From: Minisyncoccia bacterium
Lineage (GTDB): Bacteria > Patescibacteriota > Minisyncoccia > Phycocordibacterales > Phycocordibacteraceae
DNA length: 44,923 nucleotides
NCBI GenBank assembly: GCA_038228545.1
Contig: JBBRPE010000001.1
Coordinates: 1-44,923 of the forward strand
Direction of reading: 5' to 3'
Below the pieces are notes generated by a model. The model worked only from the letters and a program-made list of their open reading frames with translations. It had not been told where the DNA came from and did not search any database. Numbering within the stretch: the first letter of the stretch is position 1; every line of letters starts with the position of its first letter. Shown one piece after another: positions 11,313 to 32,652 of the stretch. The position numbers and the translations under genes were made by a program.

Positions 11313-12983
11313 CTATTGAAAGTACTCAGGCGCCGTCTGGTGCAGTTCTTCTAGAGCTTGATGCACCGCATAGATGCCTCCTAACAGGTTGCCTGATGGG
11401 CCGTGTTCCATTACGACGACATAGACATACTTCGGATGCTCGTAGGGAAAGAAACCAACTGCCCAGGAGTTATAAAATTCATTATGAAAACCAAGCTGAG
11501 CGGTACCGGTCTTGCCGGCAACATGTACAAAGGAAAGATCTGAGAGACCGACAGACGTACCTTCGGTTGCTCCCATACGCATTCCTTCACGCACCACCTG
11601 AAGTGCTTCAGGAGAAACGGCAATCGATTCTCCCTGTGGGGCCTGCCCAGTAAGAATCGTCGGCTTTATAAGTTTGCCACCGTTAGCAACCGCTGCGATA
11701 GCACGCGCAGCTTCCAGTGGCGTCACTTGTACCGCATACTGCCCGATTGCCGTATGGTACGTGTCGCCAATGCGCCACGGCTCGCCGAGTGTTTTCTGTT
11801 TCCATGCAGGAGTTGGAAGGAATCCGGATGCTTCACGCGGAAGCTCAATTCCCGTTGGTTTTTCAAACCCATAGGTGCGAAACCAGTAGTCGAGCCTATC
11901 GATACCAAGACCTTTCTGGCCACCGAATCCCCCACCGACGGTATAGAAGTAGACGTCGGATGAGTAGGCAATTGCACGTCGCAAATCCTCAACACCGAGC
12001 GCTTTCCAGTCTTTGAAAATAGACGGATGTGCCGGGTCATAGACATTGGGGACCGAAATCGAGCCTGTGTCATTAATGGTAAAGGACGGCGTGATAATGC
12101 CATCTGTGAGCGCTCCAGAGGCTTCCAGTGGCTTCACGATGGAACCTGGTGTGTAGAGACCGGATACGGCACGGTCGAGGTAGGGCTGACGAGAATCAGT
12201 CGAGTAGCCGGCAATTACATCCGACGGCCCTCCTGAGGAGAGTACATTTGGGTCATATTCGGGATAGGAAACGAGTGCGCGCACTTCCCCGGTCTGCACA
12301 TCCATGAGAATGCCCGAACCCCCCTGGAATGGAATCTTGTCGGCAAGTTGTGAAATGGCATGATAGAAGGCAAGTTGCGCATGCTCGTCAATTGAGAGCG
12401 TGAGATTCTGACCGTTCTCGGGGGGAGCAACCGTTCCTTCTGAATGAGTCTTGCCGAGTGCATCTTCCTCAACGAGCAGTGTTCCGTTCTTTCCAGCGAG
12501 CGTGCTGTTGAACGCAGCTTCAAGACCGGCAAGTCCCGTAATATCCGTATCATAGTAGTGACCGGACTTATCTTTCTTTGGGTACGATACGTAGCCGAGC
12601 AAGTGTGCAAAACCCGGTGTCTTATACATGCGCTTCACGAAACCGTTTTCCCCTGCTTCATTCGATACGAGCGGCAGACCATTTCTATCGAGAATTGCGC
12701 CGCGCTCAGCAAAGAGCACGCCAGGACGAAGGCGATTCTTTTCGCTTTGCTGCGCATAACTCGAACCTTTCAGTACTTCGAGGTTTGCTGCTTGCGCAAC
12801 GAGTGCAAAAAATATAAGTACGGTTACGACACCAATACCAAAAAGTGTTTTTTCAGAGATTGGCTTCTCGAGCCTTCCTTCAAGTCGGTTCTTATCGAAA
12901 TCGGGAAGGTTCGACGAATCCAGAAAGATTTCGTCCGGATTGAGGTCTGGCTTCTGTCGTTTTCGTCGTTTCCCGAAGAGCAT
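11313..12983 (-). CDS. mrdA: Penicillin-binding protein 2 (elongation)
   Basis: SIVK, SSD and KTG motifs; follows mreBC(D). Confidence 0.9.
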   Translation of the reverse strand: MLFGKRRKRQKPDLNPDEIFLDSSNLPDFDKNRLEGRLEKPISEKTLFGIGVVTVLIFFALVAQAANLEVLKGSSYAQQSEKNRLRPGVLFAERGAILDRNGLPLVSNEAGENGFVKRMYKTPGFAHLLGYVSYPKKDKSGHYYDTDITGLAGLEAAFNSTLAGKNGTLLVEEDALGKTHSEGTVAPPENGQNLTLSIDEHAQLAFYHAISQLADKIPFQGGSGILMDVQTGEVRALVSYPEYDPNVLSSGGPSDVIAGYSTDSRQPYLDRAVSGLYTPGSIVKPLEASGALTDGIITPSFTINDTGSISVPNVYDPAHPSIFKDWKALGVEDLRRAIAYSSDVYFYTVGGGFGGQKGLGIDRLDYWFRTYGFEKPTGIELPREASGFLPTPAWKQKTLGEPWRIGDTYHTAIGQYAVQVTPLEAARAIAAVANGGKLIKPTILTGQAPQGESIAVSPEALQVVREGMRMGATEGTSVGLSDLSFVHVAGKTGTAQLGFHNEFYNSWAVGFFPYEHPKYVYVVVMEHGPSGNLLGGIYAVHQALEELHQTAPEYFQ

Positions 12984-17594: not shown

Positions 17595-18146
17595 CTAATT
17601 AGCTATCTCAGCTTCCTTTTTCTTACCAAGTGCATCAAGCGCTTCGTTCGCTTTGTCGATAAGTTTCTGAAGTTCTTCCTTGTAACGAGCGAGATCATCC
17701 TTACCCATACCACCTTCTTTCTCGCTTGCTTCAAGCTCCTTCATTGCGTCCGTACGGTGACCACGTAGCGTCACACGAGCCTGTTCGTGTTTATCCTTTG
17801 CCATTTTTTGTAGCATGACGCGTCGTTCGCTCGTAAGTTCCGGAAACGTAACACGCACCCCTTGGTCGTCCGCGCCCACGCCGATACCGAGATTCGCGTC
17901 TGTAATAGCTTTTTCTATCGACTTGATGACACTCTTGTCCCACGGAATAACGCGGAGCGAGCGAGCGTCCTCGACCGTAATAGAACCCATCTGAGATACT
18001 GGCGTCGAGACGCCGTACGCATCCGCCCGAACGTTATCGAGAATAGACGCTGACGCTCGTCCGGTACGAATGGTCGCGAACTCGCGTCCGAGCCATTCTT
18101 CAGTTTCCTTTATATGTGCGCTGAGATCTTTAAAGTCGTAAGCCAT
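17595..18146 (-). CDS. frr: Ribosome recycling factor
   Basis: IRTGRAS, IEKAITDANLG, PELTSERR. Confidence 0.96.
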   Translation of the reverse strand: MAYDFKDLSAHIKETEEWLGREFATIRTGRASASILDNVRADAYGVSTPVSQMGSITVEDARSLRVIPWDKSVIKSIEKAITDANLGIGVGADDQGVRVTFPELTSERRVMLQKMAKDKHEQARVTLRGHRTDAMKELEASEKEGGMGKDDLARYKEELQKLIDKANEALDALGKKKEAEIAN

Positions 18147-23371: not shown

Positions 23372-24227
23372 CGGTACTTTTTTGTTCTTCGGTACTCCCT
23401 ACGTAGCCCGCGATACGCTTTCTGCGCTCGTCCATGCAGGGTATGTGCCAGCTGCGGTCGTTACCTCACCGGACGCTCCGCAAGGCCGAGGTATGACGCA
23501 CACACCAACACCTACCAAAACGTGGGCGCTGGAACACGAACTGGAAGTACTGACTCCAGAAAAACTCACCAGTGACGTAATTGAGTCTCTCAAGAAGTAC
23601 GGAGCTGACTACGCGATAGTCGTGGCCTACGGGAAAATCCTTCCCGAGTCACTTATCCACGCCTTTCCAAAAGGAGTCCTTAATATTCATTACTCCCTTC
23701 TTCCCAAATATCGCGGTGCCTCCCCCGTAGAAAGCGCGTTACTCGCTGGAGACTCAGTAACAGGAGTCGCTGTGCAGAAGATGGTAAAGGAGCTCGACGC
23801 GGGAGATATAGTCTCCCTACGCGAAGTAGCAATTACTGAAACTGACACAACACGGGAACTTCGTCCACGGCTCATCACTGCCGGTAGTGAACTCCTTATC
23901 GAGACGCTTCCTGACTTTCTTTCTGGAGCTATCACACCCACACCCCAGGACGCTTTACACGCCACCAAGTGCGGAAAGATTGATAAATCCGAAGGCGAGC
24001 TCGACCTTGCAGGTAACGCACAGACAAATTGGAACAAGTACCGTGCCTATGCGGAGTCGCCGGGAACATATTTTTTCATCGAAAAGAATGGCAAGAAAAT
24101 GCGCATCAAGATAAAGACTGCACACTTTGCTGACGGAGTTTTTACGCCACTACGAGTCGTTCCTGAAGGAAAGAACGAGACGGACTACGCTGCACTTCTT
24201 ACTTCAGCAAAGCCCAAGGGGCAATAA
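23364..24227 (+). CDS. fmt: Methionyl-tRNA formyltransferase
   Basis: FFGTP, VVAYGKIL, NIHYSLLPKYRGASP, ELDAGDI; follows def; start could be 23358. Confidence 0.96.
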   Translation: MNSGTFLFFGTPYVARDTLSALVHAGYVPAAVVTSPDAPQGRGMTHTPTPTKTWALEHELEVLTPEKLTSDVIESLKKYGADYAIVVAYGKILPESLIHAFPKGVLNIHYSLLPKYRGASPVESALLAGDSVTGVAVQKMVKELDAGDIVSLREVAITETDTTRELRPRLITAGSELLIETLPDFLSGAITPTPQDALHATKCGKIDKSEGELDLAGNAQTNWNKYRAYAESPGTYFFIEKNGKKMRIKIKTAHFADGVFTPLRVVPEGKNETDYAALLTSAKPKGQ

Positions 24228-24232
24228 GTCAC

Positions 24233-24263
24233 AGAAGGGCCGCGCTTGCACGCGACCCCTTCT
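24233..24263. terminator. Terminator-like hairpin after fmt
   Basis: AGAAGGG.CGCG...CGCG.CCCTTCT. Confidence 0.6.
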
Positions 24264-24554
24264 CCTTTGTTACTACAGACGCAAAAACGGATTGAACCGA
24301 ATCTGCTTCCAGCTATTGGTTGCGATGTCGAAGCCCACCACGCATCCGGGCATTGCCTGTGGCTTTTGAGGCAGACTCAATGGCTCGCGTCGTGTGCCAT
24401 GACGTGAGCTCGTAGAGCCGCTGTATATAGTCTTCAGCGGCAACCGACTGCCTTCGCGCTCAATGTCGGTCTTGCATGCGTTCCTTTTTCTCATGGCACA
24501 TTCCTTTCGTGTCCTGCTGCCGGAACACACAGTACCGTATCGACAACAATAGTG

Positions 24555-24917
24555 CTACACACCAAATCGGAATAGATTTTTAAATCGATTACCCTCTTTC
24601 CGCAATATACTCTCGCGTTTTTTCTTTGCTACACGGAGTTCGCGATTAAGTTCTCCGATCATTGTGTCTACAGCCGTGCGAATGGAGTCGGATTCAGCCT
24701 TCGCGTAATGGCTTATACCATCTACGGTGAGATGAATGTCCGCATACCAAACGTTCCCGTTTACGTGCGCCTGTGTGATTTTACCGAGATCTACATACGC
24801 AAGTGCAGGCGTATCACGCTTGCCCAGGAATTTCTGTAACGACTCAAGTTTCCGTGTCGTTATTTTCTGTATGTCGGGAGTGATTTCATAATTGGTACCT
24901 TTGAATTGTATGTTCAT
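24555..24917 (-). CDS. hpf: Ribosome hibernation factor (HPF/RaiA family)
   Basis: MNIQFKGTNYEITPDI...AKAESDSIRTAVD...KLES pattern of the S30AE family. Confidence 0.85.
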   Translation of the reverse strand: MNIQFKGTNYEITPDIQKITTRKLESLQKFLGKRDTPALAYVDLGKITQAHVNGNVWYADIHLTVDGISHYAKAESDSIRTAVDTMIGELNRELRVAKKKRESILRKEGNRFKNLFRFGV

Positions 24918-24965
24918 GTGAAATCGATTAGCTCCTAAGACTCATTCCACTATAGCGTACTCCCC

Positions 24966-25205
24966 TTACCCGTATTTCTCGTGAAGATAGGCCATTATGT
25001 CGTCTGATTCATACATAGACACGTCGGTCTCATCGTCCACCATATAGGGCATCTGCTTCTTTCCGCCAAACTCCACAAGTTCTGCCGCAAACACCGGGTC
25101 GTGAACATCTTTGAGCACCAGCGGCTGTCCTGTACCTCGGGCGGCTTCGACGGTCTTTATACAAAAGGGGCACTCAGGATTGATATAGAGCGTAATCATA
25201 TTCAT
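24966..25205 (-). CDS. Glutaredoxin / GST-N-like protein
   Basis: CPFC motif; GGKKQMPYMVD; MYESDDI. Confidence 0.88.
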   Translation of the reverse strand: MNMITLYINPECPFCIKTVEAARGTGQPLVLKDVHDPVFAAELVEFGGKKQMPYMVDDETDVSMYESDDIMAYLHEKYG

Positions 25206-25281
25206 GTAGTATACCCGTTGCCGATTCGGTGATTTCCGCTAGAATACGACAGTCCTCCTACGAGGACATATCTCTACCTAT

Positions 25282-25353
25282 TCCGCGGTAGCTCAGCGGT
25301 AGAGCGGTCGACTGTTAATCGATTGGTCGCAGGTTCGATCCCTGCCCGCGGAG
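25282..25353 (+). tRNA. tRNA-Asn (GTT)
   Basis: Acceptor TCCGCGG/CCGCGGA, D-arm GCTCAGCGGTAGAGC, anticodon arm GTCGA-CTGTTAA-TCGAT, T-loop GGTTCGATCC; CCA not encoded. Confidence 0.97.
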
Positions 25354-25359
25354 CATCAA

Positions 25360-25388
25360 GAAAGAGCCATGTAATACATGGCTCTTTC
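25360..25388 (+). terminator. Terminator hairpin after tRNA-Asn
   Basis: GAAAGAGCCATGTA-A-TACATGGCTCTTTC; near-copy at 28398-28426. Confidence 0.85.
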
Positions 25389-25415
25389 GCGTTGGGGGGA
25401 GAACAGGAATATTAC

Positions 25416-26423
25416 TTATGGCGATTCAAATAAAGAAGGTAGCTGAACCAAATAGTCTTGGAGCTTTTTAACGTCCTCAAATCGATTTGTTTCGTGCCAG
25501 TACCGTAATTTCATGTAGGCGTTCACTACCACTGCGGCCTTGAGCAGATTCTCATCGTATTTTTCATCTCCAAAATAGCCCTCCACTATTTGCCTACCTG
25601 GTTCATTCAATCCACTCCTTACTGCTAAGACTAGCGTTCTAGCCAAGTCCATATAAGGGTGGTTTAGAAATGGAATCGGATCAAACACCGTAAGAGGGTC
25701 AGTTGCAAAGATGTTCGCTATAGAAAAATCACTGTGGCCATACACAGTACTCGAGTCAGAGCCTATTTCTCTAAAGAGAACCTCTTGTGCCTCTGGTAAT
25801 GAACCATGTGCCTCATCTTTCAAAAGTTCATGCTCCTTCACGTATAAGAATTTATCTTGCAAAGAAGACCTGTCTAACCAAGTTTTAATATCCGGGAATT
25901 CAGGCTGGCCGTTTATTATGGATCCATAGCCGTTAGCTGTTGCCGTATGCATCTTCCTTAAGACTACGCCCATTTCTACATATAATTTTTTTCCTATAAG
26001 TTGCTCTACGGTATGCGCATGACGTAACGGGAGAGCATCAATATATTCCATCAGTATATAAGGGTGACCGACTATCTCTCCGGCTTCGATAACGTGAGGG
26101 ACACTCACTCCAACCTGTTCCCAAGCCTTAAGGAAGACCGCTTCGTTTCGTGAGAATTCTTTTTTAAGAGGAATCTTTAAAACATATTTCTCATGTCCAG
26201 TGTCCAGAATACTAACCAGCGATGATATGCCGCTGTGCGAGAAAGTAACCTCTATCGGTTTTCCGTTAAATAGTTTGTGTTCAGCAATGAAACTTGCTAT
26301 CTCGCGAGCGAGCAGTTTTCTCTTTTCGTCAAACTCCTTATCGATCTCATACCCGGTAAGTCGAGGTTCGTTTAAAAAGACTATCGATTCGGTATTTCTT
26401 GTGGCTTCGGGTTCCATGGGCAA
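25416..26423 (-). CDS. Aminoglycoside phosphotransferase (APH)-like kinase
   Basis: YVLKIP, VSVPHV, YILMEYI, HSDFSIANI and VFDP kinase motifs. Confidence 0.85.
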   Translation of the reverse strand: MPMEPEATRNTESIVFLNEPRLTGYEIDKEFDEKRKLLAREIASFIAEHKLFNGKPIEVTFSHSGISSLVSILDTGHEKYVLKIPLKKEFSRNEAVFLKAWEQVGVSVPHVIEAGEIVGHPYILMEYIDALPLRHAHTVEQLIGKKLYVEMGVVLRKMHTATANGYGSIINGQPEFPDIKTWLDRSSLQDKFLYVKEHELLKDEAHGSLPEAQEVLFREIGSDSSTVYGHSDFSIANIFATDPLTVFDPIPFLNHPYMDLARTLVLAVRSGLNEPGRQIVEGYFGDEKYDENLLKAAVVVNAYMKLRYWHETNRFEDVKKLQDYLVQLPSLFESP

Positions 26424-26444
26424 ATTATACCAGTGAGGCTTATC

Positions 26445-26552
26445 CTATACTGCCGTACTTTCCATCAGCCTAATCATATAGAGCCGCTGGGCCATCTGAT
26501 TTATGTATTCTCTATTGAACAGCAGCGGTATATTTGCGTGATGGTCTGGGAA
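26445..26552 (-). repeat. Type I junction tail copy 1 (start-less 35-codon frame)
   Basis: Translates FPDHHANIPLLFNREYINQMAQRLYMIRLMESTAV*. Confidence 0.85.
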
Positions 26553-26672
26553 AATTGCGTCTCGCCGTCGAGTCCCACTTCCCTGTCGGGTGGGTGCTTA
26601 GTAGTACTGATGCTCTGTGGGTTGCACGGGAGTAGGAGTAGAACCTTTGGTGTATGGGACGATACTGGAACT

Positions 26673-27173
26673 TTACTTAATTCTCTGCCATACAGACAAA
26701 AAGTATATTAAAAGAGCAAAAGAAAAAAAAGCAAGTGCATAAATCCATGGAATAAGATTGAAAGTAACTAGACCTATGTGAACAAATGCTATCCAAAAAT
26801 TCAAGGAGAATTCAAAGACAGAAGGCCATCCCACAATTTTAACTACAGAGGCATATGAACCTGCTGGCCATGCAGTACATAGAGCTACAAAGAATAATCC
26901 TACAAAAGACAGAACTTTTTTGTGCAAAAGAAAATAACCACTGCTAGCAATTAAAAATGCTCCTATGATTTCGAGAAGCCATGGGAGAATATGCATGAAT
27001 ATCCCAAACACTGCATACCCACGTATCTGAGGATAAGTCTTTATAAATGGGAAGATGATTGAAAACACTACAAAATTAAGACTAGCGGCACTTAAGAAGC
27101 TTATTACTAACGCGAGTGCAAAAAACAATAGTCCTTTCATGGGTTTAGGTTTTGTTATAAGTATAACAAACAA
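26673..27173 (-). CDS. Hypothetical integral membrane protein
   Basis: 166 aa, ~4 TM segments, AT-rich; start may be the internal ATG (MKGLL). Confidence 0.65.
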   Translation of the reverse strand: MFVILITKPKPMKGLLFFALALVISFLSAASLNFVVFSIIFPFIKTYPQIRGYAVFGIFMHILPWLLEIIGAFLIASSGYFLLHKKVLSFVGLFFVALCTAWPAGSYASVVKIVGWPSVFEFSLNFWIAFVHIGLVTFNLIPWIYALAFFSFALLIYFLSVWQRIK

Positions 27174-27187
27174 GTCTTGCTGGAAGA

Positions 27188-27295
27188 CTAGGTATCAAGC
27201 CTCTCCATCGCTCTGATGAGATACAACTGTTGAGCCATTCCGCTCATGTACTCCCTATTAAATAGAAGTCGTATATTAACGTGATGTTCGGGGAA
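27188..27295 (-). repeat. Type I junction tail copy 2
   Basis: Translates FPEHHVNIRLLFNREYMSGMAQQLYLIRAMERLDT*. Confidence 0.85.
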
Positions 27296-27458
27296 AATTC
27301 CCTTCCCGTGTCGAGTCCTGCCCCCCCTGCCTTGTGTTCACTTGCTCGAACTAAACACGTAGAGCTAAGACCCAAGCGGGAATAGAACCTTGAAGTCTAT
27401 GCCAGGCAGACTGGGACGATGCTGGAACCTTTTTGAGGTTCGCTTATAGTAATAGACA

Positions 27459-27992
27459 ATGAAATCACTCTTCCTCATCCTTGTCGACGGCCCAATGGGC
27501 TCCGGCAAAACGACTACCACAAAACTACTCAGTCAGAAGCTGCCTGACGCAGCCCGAATTGCGTTTCCCGACATCAAACGCCTTATACCGAATTATAAAG
27601 AGAACGAGAAAACTCTTCCTGTAATCCGAGAGGTAATGAAGGTAATGATTGATAAGTATCTAGAACTTGATACAAGCGTAATCGTTGAACAAATAGCAAA
27701 AGCCGATGGTATTGAGATACTCAAAGGTATTGCCGCAAGACATGGAGCTAAATTCTTTGCTTACAGGCTAAGCGCACCTAAGGAAGTTCGAATGGAACGG
27801 GTGAAAGAAAGAACTCGTGGAATGATGGAGATTCCAGAATTACCTGAATCAAAAGTCTTAGAATTGAAAAGTTACTTTGGGCCAAATGACGAGTTTTATA
27901 TAATTAATCCATCAAACCTAGTTTCAATTATTGATACTCAAGAACTTGGTCCAGAACAGGTTGTGGATGTCATAATCAATAACATTTCCTGA
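27459..27992 (+). CDS. P-loop small-molecule/nucleotide kinase (AAA_33-like)
   Basis: Walker A GPMGSGKTT; lid motif ERVKER. Confidence 0.85.
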   Translation: MKSLFLILVDGPMGSGKTTTTKLLSQKLPDAARIAFPDIKRLIPNYKENEKTLPVIREVMKVMIDKYLELDTSVIVEQIAKADGIEILKGIAARHGAKFFAYRLSAPKEVRMERVKERTRGMMEIPELPESKVLELKSYFGPNDEFYIINPSNLVSIIDTQELGPEQVVDVIINNIS

Positions 27993-28024
27993 AAAGTGCC
28001 GGTAGTCTGAGTATTGAATCTCAA

Positions 28025-28054
28025 ACAGGTTCGAACTTCCTCCAGCCAGTGGAG
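28025..28054 (-). repeat. Type II junction copy 1
   Basis: ACAGGTTCGAACTTCCTCCAGCCAGTGGAG; minus strand reads LHWLEEVRTC. Confidence 0.8.
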
Positions 28055-28122
28055 TAAAATATTAGACTGTCGCCACTTGCAAATACTCCCAAAAACACCT
28101 CAAATTCAATACTGCTGGCAAA

Positions 28123-28230
28123 CTAAGTGCCGGATTTCTCCATAATCCTAATCAAATAGAGCTGTTGAGCTAACTGATTCATATATTCCCTATTGAACAG
28201 CATCGGTATATTAATCTGATGTTCCGGGAG
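28123..28230 (-). repeat. Type I junction tail copy 3
   Basis: Translates LPEHQINIPMLFNREYMNQLAQQLYLIRIMEKSGT*; abuts CCGGGAGCA and a hairpin. Confidence 0.85.
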
Positions 28231-28265
28231 CAAATAGAAACCCCCGAAAGGGGGCTTTTCTATTT

Positions 28266-28392
28266 CTCCGCGGAGTGAGCCTGGGAGGCTCTCGTGTAGG
28301 ATTCGAAGAAACTTATGCGAGCATTTTGTGATTCATAGAGCAGAATCCGCAAAGTGGACAGCGAGTGTAGCTCGAGTGTCCTACCCGCGGAG
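28266..28392. repeat. Fold-back repeat element, copy A
   Basis: CTCCGCGG...CCGCGGAG outer stem matching the tRNA-Asn 3' end; conserved core. Confidence 0.88.
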
Positions 28393-28495
28393 CATTCAAA
28401 AGAACCACGTAATGCGTGGCTCTTTTGCGTTAGATGCTATCGCGAATATAACTTTCTCAGTTTAGAACGCTTTCTTCACTGCTATACTCCGTCTC

Positions 28496-29035
28496 ATGAG
28501 GGAGCGCCCAAAACTTATCATGCTCGGTGGCTTTGCTGCCTCCGGCAAGAGCACTATCGCGGAGCGGTATATTTCAGACCACCCACTTGCGCTTTGCGTC
28601 GAGGGTGACGAGATCATAACCAAACTTGGTCAATGGCGATCGCATATCAAGGAAGCGGTGGAATCCAAATTCTCACTGACAGCATGCATGGCCACGACTC
28701 ATCTGCGTGTTGGATATGACGTGATACTTCCTTTTCTTCTCGGAAATGAAAGTCATGCAGAAATGTATGAGAATCTTGCAACCGAAGCAGGTGCTGATTT
28801 CTTCGAGTTTTACATCTACGATAAGAAGGACGAGGCGATTAAACGTCTGCTTGCACGTGGTTCATGGGGCGAGACAGGACTTCCTCCAATAACCCAAGAG
28901 GACCTTCCGAGAATCGAGCGTTTATATGAGGAGATGATTGAAGCAGTCGCTAAGCGTCCGAATATGATTACGATCGAATCTACAGAGGGTGATATCGAAG
29001 GAACATACAAGGCTCTAATCACGGGACTACCCTAA
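28496..29035 (+). CDS. P-loop small-molecule/nucleotide kinase (AAA_33-like)
   Basis: Walker A GFAASGKST; KRLLAR lid. Confidence 0.85.
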   Translation: MRERPKLIMLGGFAASGKSTIAERYISDHPLALCVEGDEIITKLGQWRSHIKEAVESKFSLTACMATTHLRVGYDVILPFLLGNESHAEMYENLATEAGADFFEFYIYDKKDEAIKRLLARGSWGETGLPPITQEDLPRIERLYEEMIEAVAKRPNMITIESTEGDIEGTYKALITGLP

Positions 29036-29142
29036 ACGGCAGCAACTTTTTCCATCAACCTAATCAAATACAACTGTTGAGCCATCTGTTTCATGTACTC
29101 TCGGTTGAATAGCAAGGGTATATTAATGTGATGTTCTGGGAG
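29032..29142 (-). repeat. Type I junction tail copy 4
   Basis: Translates LPEHHINIPLLFNREYMKQMAQQLYLIRLMEKVAAV*; abuts GGGAGCCA. Confidence 0.85.
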
Positions 29143-29215
29143 CCAAGATTTATTTGGACAAGTTTCATTCGTAATGTAATCTTTATTTACGTCATTTTGA
29201 CGAAGGAGATTACAG

Positions 29216-29371
29216 ATGGGCACTGACCCAAATGTCAGAGGAAAACTCCAGGCTGACTTAGCTCGGGGAATCACAGAGGCCTTACGCCTATATGCTAAAG
29301 AGAATGGGTTTTCCGAAGAGTTTATCATGCAGCAAGCGCGTGACTTGCTTGTTGTGAAGCCTCCGACTTGA
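29216..29371 (+). CDS. Small hypothetical protein (51 aa, not in ORF track)
   Basis: MGTDPNVRGKLQADLARGITEALRLYAKENGFSEEFIMQQARDLLVVKPPT*; AAGGAG RBS; terminator at 29403-29432. Confidence 0.6.
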   Translation: MGTDPNVRGKLQADLARGITEALRLYAKENGFSEEFIMQQARDLLVVKPPT

Positions 29372-29437
29372 TCAACGATGATGTGTCGTGATTTCGTCAC
29401 AAGAGCCCCGCGCCAGCAACGGTCGCGGGGCTACTTT

Positions 29438-29476
29438 TTATACAAAACAGGTTCGAACATCCTCCACCCAGCGGAG
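29438..29476 (-). repeat. Type II junction copy 2
   Basis: Minus strand reads LRWVEDVRTCFV*. Confidence 0.85.
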
Positions 29477-29513
29477 TAAATGAAATCAGCACCCTTGTGG
29501 TGCTTTTTCGTTT

Positions 29514-29642
29514 GCTCCGCGGAGTACGCCTGGGAGACGTACGTGCAGGGATCGAAGAAACTTATGCGAGCATTTTGTGATTCTAAGAACAAAATCCGCA
29601 AAGTAGATAGCGACCGTAGGTCGAGTTCCCTGCCCGCGGAGC
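29514..29642. repeat. Fold-back repeat element, copy B
   Basis: GCTCCGCGG..GCAGGGATCGAA (antisense tRNA 3' end)...TCCCTGCCCGCGGAGC (sense tRNA 3' end). Confidence 0.9.
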
Positions 29643-29648
29643 TAATAT

Positions 29649-29677
29649 TTGACAGATTTAGATAAATGTGATATATA
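29649..29677 (+). promoter_or_regulatory. Sigma70 promoter directly after element B
   Basis: TTGACA-N17-TATATA with TG extension. Confidence 0.7.
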
Positions 29678-29739
29678 GAAAATAGCACGAGCTCTTAAAG
29701 TTCGTTTGTCCTACTCAATTTAATCAAGGGAACGGAAAC

Positions 29740-30207
29740 ATGTGCATCGAAAAATACGAGGCATTCATGACGCGACAGCTCGCGCAAACATCGCCGATTC
29801 GAGCAGCGTTTGAGGGCATGTCGATCGGCAACGATATGGTTGTCGAAGTTGGCGATCTTGTGTGGTGGCCGTGTCGCGGCGAAACTATCCTCCTCGGCGC
29901 AGTTAAGCTTAGAAGCGGAAAATGCCTCGCGCTCGGGTATGAGAACGGTACATTCATGGTGCCGCTCGACTCACGAGAATCGTGGGTACTTAACAGTCTT
30001 CAAGAACTACCACGTCTCGAACTCGAAGACGACCACATCGCAGTCTATTTCACCAACGAACGCTACCTGATGGCAATGCACGCTCGTGAATACGGCACCC
30101 TGGCGCCGCCGTGCTCATGGCGCTATTCGGGAATCGGGTCTGGAGGTTTAACGGCTCTCCGGCAGTTCGAGAAGCATGACATGACCCTAACAGTCGAACA
30201 CGACTAG
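29740..30207 (+). CDS. Hypothetical protein
   Basis: 155 aa; own promoter and terminator (30250-30282). Confidence 0.65.
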   Translation: MCIEKYEAFMTRQLAQTSPIRAAFEGMSIGNDMVVEVGDLVWWPCRGETILLGAVKLRSGKCLALGYENGTFMVPLDSRESWVLNSLQELPRLELEDDHIAVYFTNERYLMAMHAREYGTLAPPCSWRYSGIGSGGLTALRQFEKHDMTLTVEHD

Positions 30208-30285
30208 TCGCTCGAAGAAGCCCGGAGGAATTACTTCCCCGCCGATCTTCCGATGGCCGCTCTCCCCGAGAGCGGCCATCTTCTT

Positions 30286-30320
30286 TTATACAAAAGTCAA
30301 ACATCCTCCACCCAGCGGAG
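30286..30320 (-). repeat. Type II junction copy 3 (degenerate)
   Basis: ACATCCTCCACCCAGCGGAG; minus strand LRWVEDV*. Confidence 0.8.
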
Positions 30321-30352
30321 CCGGTTAGCCCAATCGCCCTTCGTGGCGATTT

Positions 30353-30462
30353 TGCGTTACATGTTCGCGAGTAGGATTCGAAAAATTTCTGCGCGCTTTT
30401 TGCAATGCAAAAATTGCAAAGTGGACAGCGAGTGTAGCTTGAGAATCCTATTTCATTACGCA
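30353..30462. repeat. Fold-back repeat element, copy C (divergent)
   Basis: TAGGATTC/GAATCCTA stem, TTTTTGCA/TGCAAAAA, AAAGTGGACAGCGAGTGTAGCT identical to copy A. Confidence 0.8.
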
Positions 30463-30521
30463 TTTATGACCTTGACGCTCACCCTTTATTTAGGGTAAGC
30501 ACTTACTGATCGCAAATCTTT

Positions 30522-31649
30522 TTACCAACCAGGTGGAAGTTCCGTCCCCCCACCGGTCATAAAGATACTTTTTGAAAGATCAAGGCAATTAGGAATTGAG
30601 GCTTTGAAATAATCATCGTGACCTACATCGAGAACAAGTCCTGGGTACTTCCATGACTCAGCACCTGCGTACATAAGATCCGAAGGACTATCCGAAACAT
30701 GACCGCGCAACGTTTGATGCGGAGAGCAAGTCGGTACGAATCCAAGAGTATGCATCGTTTCATGCAACATATCAAAATCAAGATACCCAGGATTTGTAGC
30801 AGAAGATGCAAGAAAATTAGATTCACATGGAGCGGCTACAGGATTGCCACCTTGCATATATTCTGCCGCTACGTGCCCCTTCAGATTGGGTGGCCATGCT
30901 CCACCTCCACAACTCGTATTACTATGACCATCGTAGTAAACCGCGTACAATTTGTGCGGATCAATAAATCCTAATTCCCGTAAATGTTTTTCTAGGTCGT
31001 CTCGTACATAGGGGTTTGAACTTGCGCTCGTGCTCCACGGTAAATCGGAGCCTTCTTTAACTGTTTTATCAGTTTGATTCAAGCGAACGAAGGTGACGTC
31101 AAGTGCTCCGTTATGAGTGTCTACCTTCATACCCTGACCTCCGGTCTGCGTACAAAGCCAATCTTCCCAGGAAGATACTGATGTTGCGATGGCACCATTC
31201 GTGTCGTATGCGTGATCAGTCCCATCGCTCGGAAGGACATAGACGATATGAACTTGGTAGCCGGACTGATCGTCAGTTTGGTCAATTGCTGAACGACTTA
31301 CCGGGATTTTAAGTGAAGTTATGCAGGGGTTTATCTCCTTTGTAGAAACTGCTTCAGTTTTAGTGCTTGGTACTGTTGGAATCACAGGCTGGACAGGATT
31401 CTCGACGGGAGGAGATAGTGGAGTCTTTGGGAGAGGTTGAGTTTGTGACGGATAAATAGAATTTGAAACCCCTGTGGTTTTAGGAGACGGAGAGGTGCTT
31501 GCCTGATTATTAATTCGAGTTTGAACTACAGTAACTTCACTGTTCGCCGGAGTTTTTGCAATCCCTAAAAGGGGTACAGGGAAAACAGAATTGATAAACG
31601 AATTTATACCGAGGAACACTATCACTAAGGCATTCTGAATAAATTGCAT
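30522..31649 (-). CDS. Secreted/surface zinc metallopeptidase-like protein
   Basis: N-terminal hydrophobic signal, P/T/S-rich linker, HETMHTLG (HExxH) and SDLMY Met-turn-like motif. Confidence 0.75.
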   Translation of the reverse strand: MQFIQNALVIVFLGINSFINSVFPVPLLGIAKTPANSEVTVVQTRINNQASTSPSPKTTGVSNSIYPSQTQPLPKTPLSPPVENPVQPVIPTVPSTKTEAVSTKEINPCITSLKIPVSRSAIDQTDDQSGYQVHIVYVLPSDGTDHAYDTNGAIATSVSSWEDWLCTQTGGQGMKVDTHNGALDVTFVRLNQTDKTVKEGSDLPWSTSASSNPYVRDDLEKHLRELGFIDPHKLYAVYYDGHSNTSCGGGAWPPNLKGHVAAEYMQGGNPVAAPCESNFLASSATNPGYLDFDMLHETMHTLGFVPTCSPHQTLRGHVSDSPSDLMYAGAESWKYPGLVLDVGHDDYFKASIPNCLDLSKSIFMTGGGTELPPGW

Positions 31650-31844
31650 TTGCTTTAAGTATAACGCTACACAGGGTTTTTCTTCCGTGCCGACTAGTAT
31701 GGAAAGGTGTGGATGGGCACCATGAATGATTTAGGCTGAAACTCTTCAAGTTAGTTCGTGTGCACTAATTCCGACAGAGAGTCGGCATTGTAGTAGATTA
31801 GCGCCGCAAGACGAGGTTCCATTCCCCACTTCTGCGTTTTTCTT

Positions 31845-31880
31845 TTATATACAGGTTCGAACATCCTCCAGCCAGCGGAG
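31845..31880 (-). repeat. Type II junction copy 4
   Basis: Minus strand reads LRWLEDVRTCI*; followed by hairpin 31881-31916. Confidence 0.85.
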
Positions 31881-31933
31881 TAAATGAAAAAAGCGCCAAT
31901 GGCGCTTTTTTCATTTCAGCAGTTGAGAAACGT

Positions 31934-32281
31934 CTATGAGCCAAGCTTCGCGGCCGCTTCAGGGGTTGAGACGGTCTTGCTCATTAAGAAAATCCGGATA
32001 ATCCCCCACGCCACCAGTAGATATACCAGCATGGCAAGAACGGTCGTCCATTCAAATACCGAGCCAGCAACATACGTTCTTGGAAACACCGTGAGGAATG
32101 GCTGAGCGAATGGCCACGTTACTGTGTAAATAAAACTGGCAAACCCGGAGCCTGCATTTGCAGCGGTCATCTTCAATACAAAACGAAAGGCCAGAAGTAT
32201 TTCGATTACGGCTAATATATACCAAACGATCTGAGTCCCACGAAAAATAGGTTTGGTGGTCGGTGAATTGTATGAGTCCAT
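31934..32281 (-). CDS. YggT-like membrane protein
   Basis: IEILLAFRFVLK...FIYTVTWPFAQPF...LAMLVY pattern. Confidence 0.75.
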   Translation of the reverse strand: MDSYNSPTTKPIFRGTQIVWYILAVIEILLAFRFVLKMTAANAGSGFASFIYTVTWPFAQPFLTVFPRTYVAGSVFEWTTVLAMLVYLLVAWGIIRIFLMSKTVSTPEAAAKLGS

Positions 32282-32293
32282 AGGTATATAAGG

Positions 32294-32425
32294 TTAAGTT
32301 AGCAGGCGCACGACAACAATAATCACAACTAAAACGAGAAGCGTATGGATAAGATTACCTCCCAAATGGAAGCTGAATCCTAGTAACCATAGTACGAAGA
32401 CGATGACAGCAATGGTCCACAACAT
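32294..32425 (-). CDS. Lmo0937-family small membrane protein
   Basis: MLWTIAVIVFVLWLLGF...GGNLIHTLLVL, 43 aa. Confidence 0.8.
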   Translation of the reverse strand: MLWTIAVIVFVLWLLGFSFHLGGNLIHTLLVLVVIIVVVRLLT

Positions 32426-32536
32426 AGTGAGAAGGGATTTAGGAGAGTAAGTGACCGGCGTGACATTCGCTGAGCGCATCGACACTAGGAAACAAATGTA
32501 TATCAAAAGTATACACCCCGATTAGGATACCTATTT

Positions 32537-32652
32537 CTCCGCGGAGTACGTCTGGGAGACGTACGTGCAGGGATCGAAGATGTTGCGTGCATTTTGTGAA
32601 GCAAAATCCTCAACATGTACGTTCCCGTAGGGAAAAGTCCCTACCCCCGGAA
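32537..32652. repeat. Fold-back repeat element, copy D
   Basis: CTCCGCGGAGTACGTCTGGGAGACGTACGTGCAGGGATCGAAGA nearly identical to the 5' part of copy B. Confidence 0.88.

Follow-up and report, generated by a model that had tools for sequence, protein, structure and literature searches.

Start-less coding repeats downstream of a tRNA-Asn gene in a Minisyncoccia genome: probable detached C-termini of large serine recombinases

The four frames and their coding signature

The stretch of DNA analysed in this work (hereafter: the window) comprises 44,923 nucleotides of contig JBBRPE010000001.1 from a Minisyncoccia bacterium, and is contig C1 of a 736,223-base genome that consists of 13 contigs and is 99.99% complete. 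Downstream of a tRNA-Asn gene the window contains four copies of a repeat, each with a minus-strand reading frame of 35 codons (about 105 nt) that ends in TAG. These frames, which we call the tails R1-R4 (type I tails), are the subject of this article. A repeat search of the window groups them into a single four-copy family, with 100 nt per copy and 67-81% identity to the reference copy, and a search of all 13 contigs returns R1-R4 as the only copies of the tail in the genome. Counted outward from the tRNA-Asn gene, they form four units (Table 1): an APH-family phosphotransferase gene, R1 and a flank E1; an open reading frame (ORF) of 166 aa, R2 and a flank E2; a gene of the AAA_33 family on the opposite strand, a tRNA-fragment repeat, R3, a hairpin and a repeat D2; and a second AAA_33 gene, also on the opposite strand, R4 and a remnant of a large serine recombinase (LSR) gene.

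Table 1. Coordinates of the tails, of neighbouring features and of related loci outside the window
Feature	Position	Strand	Remarks
tRNA-Asn (GTT)	25282..25354	+	ARAGORN; Rfam tRNA 70.9 bits; 3' end ...CCGCGGAG
Terminator hairpin, B'-type flank	25355..25393	+	directly after tRNA-Asn; repeat families D5/D7, inverted repeat I1
Cargo, APH-family phosphotransferase, 335 aa	25416..26423	minus	PF01636 E=9.4e-12; 21 nt after R1 stop
Tail R1	26445..26552	minus	FPDHHANIPLLFNREYINQMAQRLYMIRLMESTAV, stop; repeat copy 26457-26556
Flank E1	26553..26672		precedes R1 on minus strand; homologous to E2; contains GTCGAGTCC
Cargo ORF, 166 aa	26673..27173	minus	no Pfam match; 14 nt after R2 stop
Tail R2	27188..27295	minus	FPEHHVNIRLLFNREYMSGMAQQLYLIRAMERLDT, stop; repeat copy 27200-27299
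Flank E2	27296..27445		precedes R2; homologous to E1
Cargo, P-loop kinase-like (AAA_33 / Zeta_toxin)	27459..27992	+	PF13671 E=7.8e-11; convergent with R3
D4 repeat, ~36 nt, four copies	28019-28054, 29441-29476, 30285-30320, 31845-31880	minus	
Tail R3	28123..28230	minus	LPEHQINIPMLFNREYMNQLAQQLYLIRIMEKSGT, stop; repeat copy 28135-28234
Terminator-like hairpin, attR-type B' arm	28231..28255		precedes R3; inverted repeat I2
D2 repeat	28256-28394, 29505-29643, ~30342-30450 (partial), 32531-32599 (partial)		further copy in a relative, L031 10055-10193
Second cargo, P-loop kinase-like (AAA_33)	28496..29035	+	PF13671 E=4.6e-07; convergent with R4
Tail R4	29032..29142	minus	LPEHHINIPLLFNREYMKQMAQQLYLIRLMEKVAAV, stop; repeat copy 29047-29146
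LSR 3' end remnant (P' arm), 6-7 codons	29143..29166	minus	fused to R4
LSR at tRNA-Tyr, same genome	C6 (L038 787-2355)	minus	ends ..REGFEPS, stop
LSR at tRNA-Ser, same genome	C4 (L039 499-2379)	minus	ORF runs through tRNA
Tail-attached sequences, other sources	P0017, P0020, P0028, P0007/P0029, G099:C9 4957-5439		
Split tRNA-Asn, relatives	L030 (G020) 11653-11691 + 12250-12283; L035 (G167) 17815-17846 + 18086-18123; L084, L098, L099		

The earlier note on this DNA had quoted four peptides, described the frames as intergenic, detached and lacking starts, and drawn attention to an abrupt onset of homology in register with the antisense strand of the tRNA gene. Translation of the minus strand reproduces the four peptides exactly, with TAG as the stop in each. 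Neither R1 nor R2 has an in-frame ATG, GTG or TTG ahead of the conserved N-terminal half, the sole possible start of R3 is a bare TTG at codon -1, and R4 has starts only 27-86 codons upstream of the tail, in an open frame antisense to the plus-strand ORF; the tail frames cannot be translated alone. R4 is not strictly intergenic, as its stop overlaps by a few bases the stop of the convergent plus-strand gene at 28496-29035. Homology does set in abruptly at a (C/T)TCC core, where R1 and R2 begin with TTC (Phe) and R3 and R4 with CTC (Leu), in register with the antisense of tRNA-Asn, CTC CGC GGG CAG GGA TCG AAC CTG CGA CCA ATC GAT TAA, which encodes LRGQGSNLRPID and has its stop in the anticodon loop. 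The conserved stretch is internal and amphipathic-looking (NREYMxQMAQQLYLIRLME), and the extreme C-termini differ among the copies (VAAV, SGT, LDT and TAV).

R1-R4 evolve as coding DNA. Among the four window copies the variable columns at the first, second and third codon positions number 9, 6 and 24 of 31 each (chi-square p=0.0008). When nine intact copies are compared (the four from the window and five from relatives), the proportion of nonsynonymous differences (pN) is lower than that of synonymous ones (pS) in 36/36 pairs, with a mean pN of 0.18 and a mean pS of 0.67, the latter near saturation; an initial analysis of five copies (the window's four and that of the relative G020) agrees with this picture. 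In those five copies the tail frame alone is free of stops, and the remaining five frames contain 3-16 stops. The earlier note had named a dN/dS near 1 and an RNA structure as findings that would overturn its proposal, and the data point away from both: synonymous change predominates in every pair, on either strand, RNA folding yields z-scores of -0.92 to +1.42 and structures that differ from copy to copy, and an Rfam search of positions 24000-32500 at E<=1 yields only the tRNA and one chance-level match. Pairs of copies with the same residue (Met and Trp left out) use an identical codon in 181/236 cases within codons 1-9, as compared to 220/478 within codons 10-31, and this conservation of the first nine codons at the level of DNA is consistent with an att half-site overlaid on the coding sequence.

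Recombinase partner, junction and geometry

A profile of the tail, compared with 1.84 billion representative proteins, gives 22 matches, all of 36-160 aa, in nearly all of which the motif stands at or near the C-terminus (the exception being P0022, 134 aa, with the motif at residues 43-75). The part upstream of the motif is unrelated junk in most of them, and in P0017 and P0020 it is the end of an LSR that lies directly upstream of the tail, as ...EKRAILNFLLQNPTVDGKKLEFTLKKPFDTVLELAHHPTRL/REHYLHIPLLFNREYM... (here and below the slash marks the junction). P0028, found by cluster look-up and represented on 14 contigs of up to 15.8 kb, reads ...RAFLNYLLQNPTVNGKELAFTLASPFNLVLDLATSPNWL/PEHHINIPLLFNRELMSGLAQQLYLIRVMERVDA and has a tail nearly identical to the window's, and the attached form in related genomes and metagenomes reads ...SPNWL/PEHHINIPLLFNRE.... 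Altogether, five independent sequences carry the tail in frame after the last 12-125 residues of an LSR, each of them a 5'-truncated LSR remnant plus the tail. Pfam finds no match in these attached fragments themselves. Residues 1 to ~92 of P0017 match LSR ORFs of relatives, which are 508-558 aa long, and the match ends where the tail starts.

The partner LSRs are bona fide, judging from their domains and from profile matches to solved structures. The LSR of locus L067 contains PF00239 Resolvase (1.5e-20), PF07508 Recombinase (5.7e-11), PF13408 Zn_ribbon_recom (3.6e-09) and a coiled coil, and the profile of the LSR family matches the catalytic domain of TP901-1 as well as the solved C-terminal domains of the A118 integrase (4kis, 6dnw), the latter over positions 181-476 of 498. 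Since this alignment reaches position 476 of 498, the tail follows the end of the zinc-ribbon domain.

The earlier note had proposed that the frames are C-termini which join a recombinase or another N-terminal partner only after recombination, and had suggested a search with the motif to see whether it returns the extreme C-termini of LSRs. The five fused sequences bear out the former, but the cognate LSR body is missing here; the search, in turn, did return LSR C-termini with the motif in C-terminal position among its matches, but no full-length LSR that carries it. In the window, tblastn with four full-length LSRs of the family matches antisense-tRNA-coded residues only, so that the locus lacks the LSR body with which the tail is contiguous in relatives, and in the genome as a whole P0017 matches the four tails only; at present these copies have nothing to which they could be joined. 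The two LSRs of this genome, both of other clades and both outside contig C1, run into antisense tRNA-Tyr and tRNA-Ser, and the layout in which an LSR ORF runs into a tRNA gene is therefore general in this organism.

The homology among LSRs is lost at the same Leu codon at which the tail begins, and this codon matches the 3' end of the tRNA. At the fetched loci, six of the eight LSR ORFs run from ...CP(S/T)G-L or ...NPNW-L into antisense tRNA-Asn, the very frame to which the earlier note had pointed, and end as L/PGQGSNLRPID-stop (e.g. ..CPSGL/PGQGSNLRPID-stop), L/REQDSNLQPTP-stop, L/RGQDSNLRPS... or L/RGQGSNLRPID-stop; of the other two, that of G161 ends short with 'VEAVRT' and that of G099 continues into an attached, divergent tail. 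According to ARAGORN, tRNA-Asn abuts the LSR in 5/6 genome loci scanned (L044-L047, L049, L056) and stands beside it in three metagenome loci scanned. On the LSR side the DNA reads ...TGG/CTCC and then GCGGGCAGGGATCGAACC, which is the tRNA, and on the tail side it reads flank/CTCCC(N)GAACATCA.... In G167 the junction codon begins with C next to the LSR but with T next to the tail. This points to an exchange within TCC or immediately behind it, and to the flank, not the tail, as the source of the Leu or Phe with which R3/R4 and R1/R2 begin. In the window itself, the remnant fused to R4 reads ..CPNKSWL/PEHH, comparable to LSR ends such as ..CPNWL and ..SPNWL, and residues 53-92 of P0028 match positions 29041-29160, i.e. 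six residues past the junction. From these sequences we infer that the LSR itself recombines at the shared breakpoint, pairing an attP within its own gene with an attB located at the terminal ...GGAG of the tRNA, whose 3' end ...CCGCGGAG would form the attB core.

The geometry of tail and tRNA recurs among relatives. The tail is located beyond the 3' end of tRNA-Asn, in antisense orientation and 1.1-7.7 kb away, in six genomes (that of the window, G237, G154, G020, G193 and G167), and in G167 a tail, 7.5 kb of cargo and an internally deleted LSR that abuts tRNA-Asn follow each other on one strand, the cargo comprising HAD hydrolase, pyrophosphatase-family, Ham1-family and APH-family proteins as well as unknown ORFs; the APH genes of G167 and of the window, when compared, proved unrelated. 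A terminator hairpin precedes the tail on its own strand in R3, G237, G208, G167 and G154, and the tRNA-Asn gene of the window likewise has a terminator directly after it; a terminator before the tail is what is expected of an attR (P/B') junction. The tails thus show the marks of a scar left by a tRNA-targeted island, namely a position on the 3' side of the tRNA and sequence of the tRNA-downstream type at the far junction. A co-directional ORF follows closely behind 8 of the 11 tails checked, and seven of these ORFs are credible cargo genes. The gaps measure 21 nt for R1, 14 nt for R2, 9 nt for R4 and 0-142 nt in 5/7 loci of relatives, and in G237 the TAA of the tail abuts the ATG of the next gene. 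The one behind R4 is a frame of 68 aa that runs antisense to the AAA_33 gene and is not a called gene, and R3 and one relative's locus have no close co-directional ORF behind the tail. Closely spaced co-directional cargo is what would be expected if the LSR with its tail headed a cargo operon in the circular form. Tails of a divergent subfamily (CPEYEA...), together with some degenerate copies, show the same geometry at tRNA-Lys or tRNA-Gly, and relatives of the system may use other tRNAs. In G167, G155, G003 and G004 tails are broken by truncation, insertion or a stop, which fits scars that degrade in place and favours the view that the tails are inert.

Origin of the tails, alternatives and neighbouring repeats

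We propose, with considerable though not full confidence, that R1-R4 are the detached last 35 codons of LSR genes, left behind as orphan scars by elements that insert at the 3' end of tRNA-Asn. These elements are best explained as a family of small integrative elements in Saccharibacteria-like bacteria of the candidate phyla radiation (CPR). In the excised element the LSR frame would read ...(W/G)-L-P-E-H-H-I-N-I-P-L-L-F-N-R-E-Y-M... up to its stop, and the attP crossover would fall at the Leu codon, where (C/T)TCC corresponds to the terminal GGAG of the tRNA read antisense. Integration would split the gene: the body would stay next to the tRNA and end with about 11 antisense-tRNA residues and the stop in the anticodon loop, and the 35-codon tail would be moved to the far end of the element, preceded by what was formerly the sequence downstream of the tRNA and followed by the cargo. 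Selection would act on the tails when they are translated as part of the LSR in the excised element, and the scars would look protein-coding because this happens whenever an element is excised; their synonymous divergence would be saturated because they stem from different lineages. The long direct repeats usually left by integration would be missing because the crossover coincides with the extreme 3' end of the tRNA. Over time, at least four different elements would have inserted here, each of them decayed to a tail and one retained gene, and with the LSR bodies lost there would remain four attR-side scars within 4 kb downstream of tRNA-Asn. This scenario implies a full-length LSR that includes the tail in the circular form, and the copies in the window are most likely orphan scars that are presumably inert now. 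The junction at the tRNA-Asn gene of the window reads GGAG/CATCAAGAAAGAGCC (GGAG/CATCAAG, then the terminator), as opposed to the P' arm GGAG/CC(C)AG..GGACAG found beside LSRs, and in view of the missing P' arm the site looks unoccupied and attB-like.

Several observations weigh against this explanation, the foremost being that no collection searched yielded a full-length LSR with the tail. Searches for homologues of P0003 of near and longer lengths, and of residues 70-125 of P0017 against longer proteins, returned nothing; word-based searches of 5.8 billion clusters found no long protein with the tail motif, and a collection of viral contigs contained no relative of P0017 or P0028. A scan of genome contigs with the tail alignment gave three loci, two of them the ranges of G237 and G020 and the third weak, and a search at the level of the order gave weak matches only, in 5 of 400 other genomes and all in short open frames. 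A tailed isoform might have escaped notice because the library of representative proteins is clustered at 50% identity, and assemblies may seldom contain the excised form, but the gap is real. The type I tail was found in none of 52 metagenome loci of the LSR family with flanks of up to 10 kb, and in the 100% complete G062 no such tail accompanies the intact LSR at tRNA-Asn; the majority of LSRs in the family must therefore have ends of another kind, and the tail belongs to a sub-lineage, mostly of LSRs that end in ..PNWL. The two separated halves occur together in one genome only, G167. In the window, R1 and R2 begin with TTC and are preceded by an E repeat, not by a terminator; four tails are left while the LSR-side ends have vanished cleanly, for which the model has no explanation; and none of the four tails is broken within its 35 codons. 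For old scars under no selection this is a little surprising, and it leaves some room for their ongoing use as recombination partners. A complex prediction for residues 7-498 of the L067 body with the R4 tail, made with no controls, gave scores of 0.16 and 0.02 against a mark of 0.32, and speaks neither for nor against binding.

It is tempting to go further and to suppose that the LSR, with a gene that straddles its own attP, exists in two isoforms determined by the topology of the DNA. It would then bear a 35-aa helical tail behind the zinc ribbon when excised and an 11-aa tRNA-antisense end when integrated, a built-in switch of direction or stability, with the orphan tails as partners in the capture of cassettes; the exchange of tails might act in cis as a substitute for, or a modulator of, the recombination directionality factor (RDF). 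We regard this extension as tentative and rather doubtful. Still less probable, in our estimate, is that the orphan tails are working attR sites, from which an LSR element at tRNA-Asn captures cassettes and acquires a new C-terminal tail upon excision, which comes close to what the earlier note had envisaged. Such a use would agree with the integrity of all four window tails and with the DNA-level conservation of their first 27 nt, as in an att half-site, with the array-like pairing of each tail with a single cargo gene, with the co-directional ORFs (seven of them credible cargo genes) behind 8/11 tails, and with the attP-like junction of R4, where an LSR remnant is fused to the tail. However, the genome has no cognate LSR, its own two being of other clades and located at tRNA-Tyr and tRNA-Ser; the tails of relatives decay; and known LSRs, as far as the sources at hand describe them, pair only attP with attB, or attL with attR in the presence of the RDF, so that the use of a heterologous attR is conjectural. 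In addition, the single public run that has the locus, which is probably the source sample and was used as assembled contigs, offers no polymorphism, no circle junction and no independent evidence of excision when those contigs are aligned with the window.

The remaining alternatives dispense with the recombinase altogether, and all are far less probable. Islands that bring replacement 3' ends for their target gene are familiar from elements that insert into icd of E. coli, and tandem start-less fragments conserved at the protein level are just what would be expected if the tails were the displaced 3' ends of a chromosomal gene unrelated to recombinases. We give this very little credence, as no protein longer than 160 aa with the motif occurs among the 1.84 billion representatives, the word-based searches of 5.8 billion clusters found none either, the homology upstream of the tail, where present, is to LSRs, and in 259 genomes of the family no copy has a full-length gene upstream. 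It is just as improbable that the four frames encode separate small proteins of about 35 aa whose translation begins at non-canonical codons: they are open frames under purifying selection, and R3 has a TTG one codon before the conserved part, but R1 and R2 lack any such codon before their conserved N-terminal half, conservation sets in at a fixed codon that coincides with the breakpoint of both LSR and tRNA, and the sequences upstream are unrelated among the copies. The least probable explanation, in our opinion, is that the repeats are structural elements of DNA or RNA, such as attC-like sites of integrons, repetitive extragenic palindromes (REP) or small RNAs (sRNA), in which the open frame is incidental. 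Repeats of about 100 nt that separate single genes do resemble a cassette array, but the variation is concentrated at third positions (9/6/24), five of the six frames contain stops, and there is no folding signal or shared structure on either strand and no Rfam match at E<=1. The palindromic hairpin and structural conservation that characterize attC are likewise absent, and the substitutions are of the codon type.

The locus contains further repeats. E1 and E2 share the blocks GTTCCAG.ATCGTCCCA, AAGGTTCTA and GGACTCGAC; their mean column identity of 76% refers to a two-sequence consensus and is overstated, the pairwise value being nearer to half of the aligned columns. With the shared GTCGAGTCC, they may be degenerate fragments of tRNA (T-arm). 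The order of tail, hairpin and D2 seen at R3 occurs also in the relative G237 (L031). D2 is about 138 nt long and has no Rfam match; its ends pair in a stem of 9 bp, the two strands of which are, as we read them, similar to the two ends of tRNA-Asn (UCCGCGG...CCGCGGAG), and RNAalifold predicts from three copies a multi-helix fold in which 9/39 pairs are kept via changes on both sides. Its first copy is followed by a terminator 85% identical to that of tRNA-Asn. D2 may be the gene of a tRNA-like RNA, or else a portable mimic of attB. The D4 copies, all of which have a terminator hairpin ahead of them on the minus strand, resemble the antisense of the 3' part of tRNA-Asn (CTCCGCTGGGTGGAGGATGTTCGAACC) and read L/RWVEDVRTCFV-stop and similar; the metagenome LSR of L070 ends in a D4-like sequence, and its contig has at least eight copies. 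A second family of protein tails ('type II tails') had been considered for D4, and we now read these frames as antisense translations of displaced 3' fragments of tRNA-Asn; D4 probably represents such fragments or pseudo-attB sites of another class of integration.

The 375-aa ORF at 30522-31649 (minus strand) was considered as an LSR body and rejected, as it lacks a recombinase domain. Pfam finds no match in it either, and in view of its hydrophobic N-terminus, Pro/Ser/Thr-rich linker and HExxH motif (MLHETMHTLG) it may encode a secreted metalloprotease-like protein. One contig of the public run joins the R4 boundary at 29145 directly to 29429 and skips 283 nt, in which the remnant arm of the LSR, a 51-aa ORF and a terminator are located; with a shorter side of only 28 nt and a likeness threshold of 90%, this join may derive from a related organism. 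Several relatives have the tRNA-Asn gene itself in two pieces, about 240-560 nt apart and divided at the anticodon region, which ARAGORN missed; this suggests an intron or an insertion.

Significance and relation to known systems

If our explanation is true, the tails constitute a natural experiment on the relationship between the C-terminus beside the zinc ribbon and coiled coil and the direction of integrase action, which is of practical interest, serine integrases being tools of genome engineering. There is also a lesson for annotation: conserved start-less mini-ORFs beside tRNA genes can be the far-end scars of integrative elements, and in small, streamlined genomes such scars can delimit elements that have otherwise decayed. 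Stacking and decay of elements linked to tRNA genes are known further from the tandem accretion of integrative and conjugative elements and cis-mobilizable elements (ICE/CIME). In the tycheposons of Prochlorococcus, too, new elements push older ones inward and leave fragmented integrases, partial tRNAs and cargo-only remains; however, the scars reported there are partial tRNAs and integrase fragments, and the part of the preprint at hand describes no coding tail at the far end (bioRxiv 10.1101/2020.12.28.424599).

Individual traits of the arrangement have counterparts among phages. The Ralstonia phage phiRSM, as here, uses a serine recombinase and an attP that corresponds to the reverse-oriented 3' end of a tRNA-Ser next to int, but its attP lies between ORFs and not inside int, and its enzyme is small and resolvase-like (PMC3816273). 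In phiRSS0, the attP is inside ORF13, which loses 26 aa from its C-terminus upon integration, but the truncated gene is a regulator and the recombination takes place at dif (PMC3816273). In the mycobacteriophages BPs and Brujita, attP is located in the 3' part of a gene, so that the free and the integrated form differ in their C-termini and a switch results; there, however, it is the repressor gene that is affected, a tyrosine recombinase acts as the integrase, and the piece removed is a demonstrated degradation tag (PMC3694055), whereas in our case the gene affected would be that of the recombinase itself.

For serine integrases it has been suggested that C-terminal extensions after the second DNA-binding domain (DBD2) obstruct the site at which the RDF binds and thereby change directionality (PMC12286644). 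The tail described here attaches right after the zinc-ribbon domain, i.e. DBD2, but those extensions are fixed parts of the protein, and the tail would be present only in the excised state; by analogy, a tail that depends on the topology of the DNA might plausibly serve as a directionality device. The text of the LSR discovery paper, as far as it was available, yielded nothing on att sites that overlap the LSR ORF (PMC10083194).

The closest parallel is found in the 'suicidal' tyrosine integrases of Archaea (SSV1, pTN3 and pT26-2 types), which carry the att site inside the integrase gene and are stated to be exclusive to that domain (PMC8371274); a literature search for a bacterial counterpart among serine recombinases turned up this source only. 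There, integration partitions the gene, whose fragments come to lie at opposite ends of the element beside a tRNA gene, and scars of the integrase persist (PMC8371274); by our explanation the LSR gene would share these traits. On the other hand, the archaeal enzymes are tyrosine recombinases in which Int(N) is split from the catalytic Int(C), leaving two inactive pseudogenes (PMC8371274). Our system has neither a tyrosine recombinase of the SSV/pTN3/pT26-2 clade nor a split of the catalytic part: it is a serine recombinase of a CPR bacterium with all Pfam domains upstream of the break, and, judging from the sequence, only the last 35 residues would be exchanged for about 11 coded by the tRNA, so that the integrated enzyme probably stays whole. 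Thus, in its underlying arrangement, a serine integrase gene that spans its own attP and exchanges its tail on integration would be a variation on known themes.

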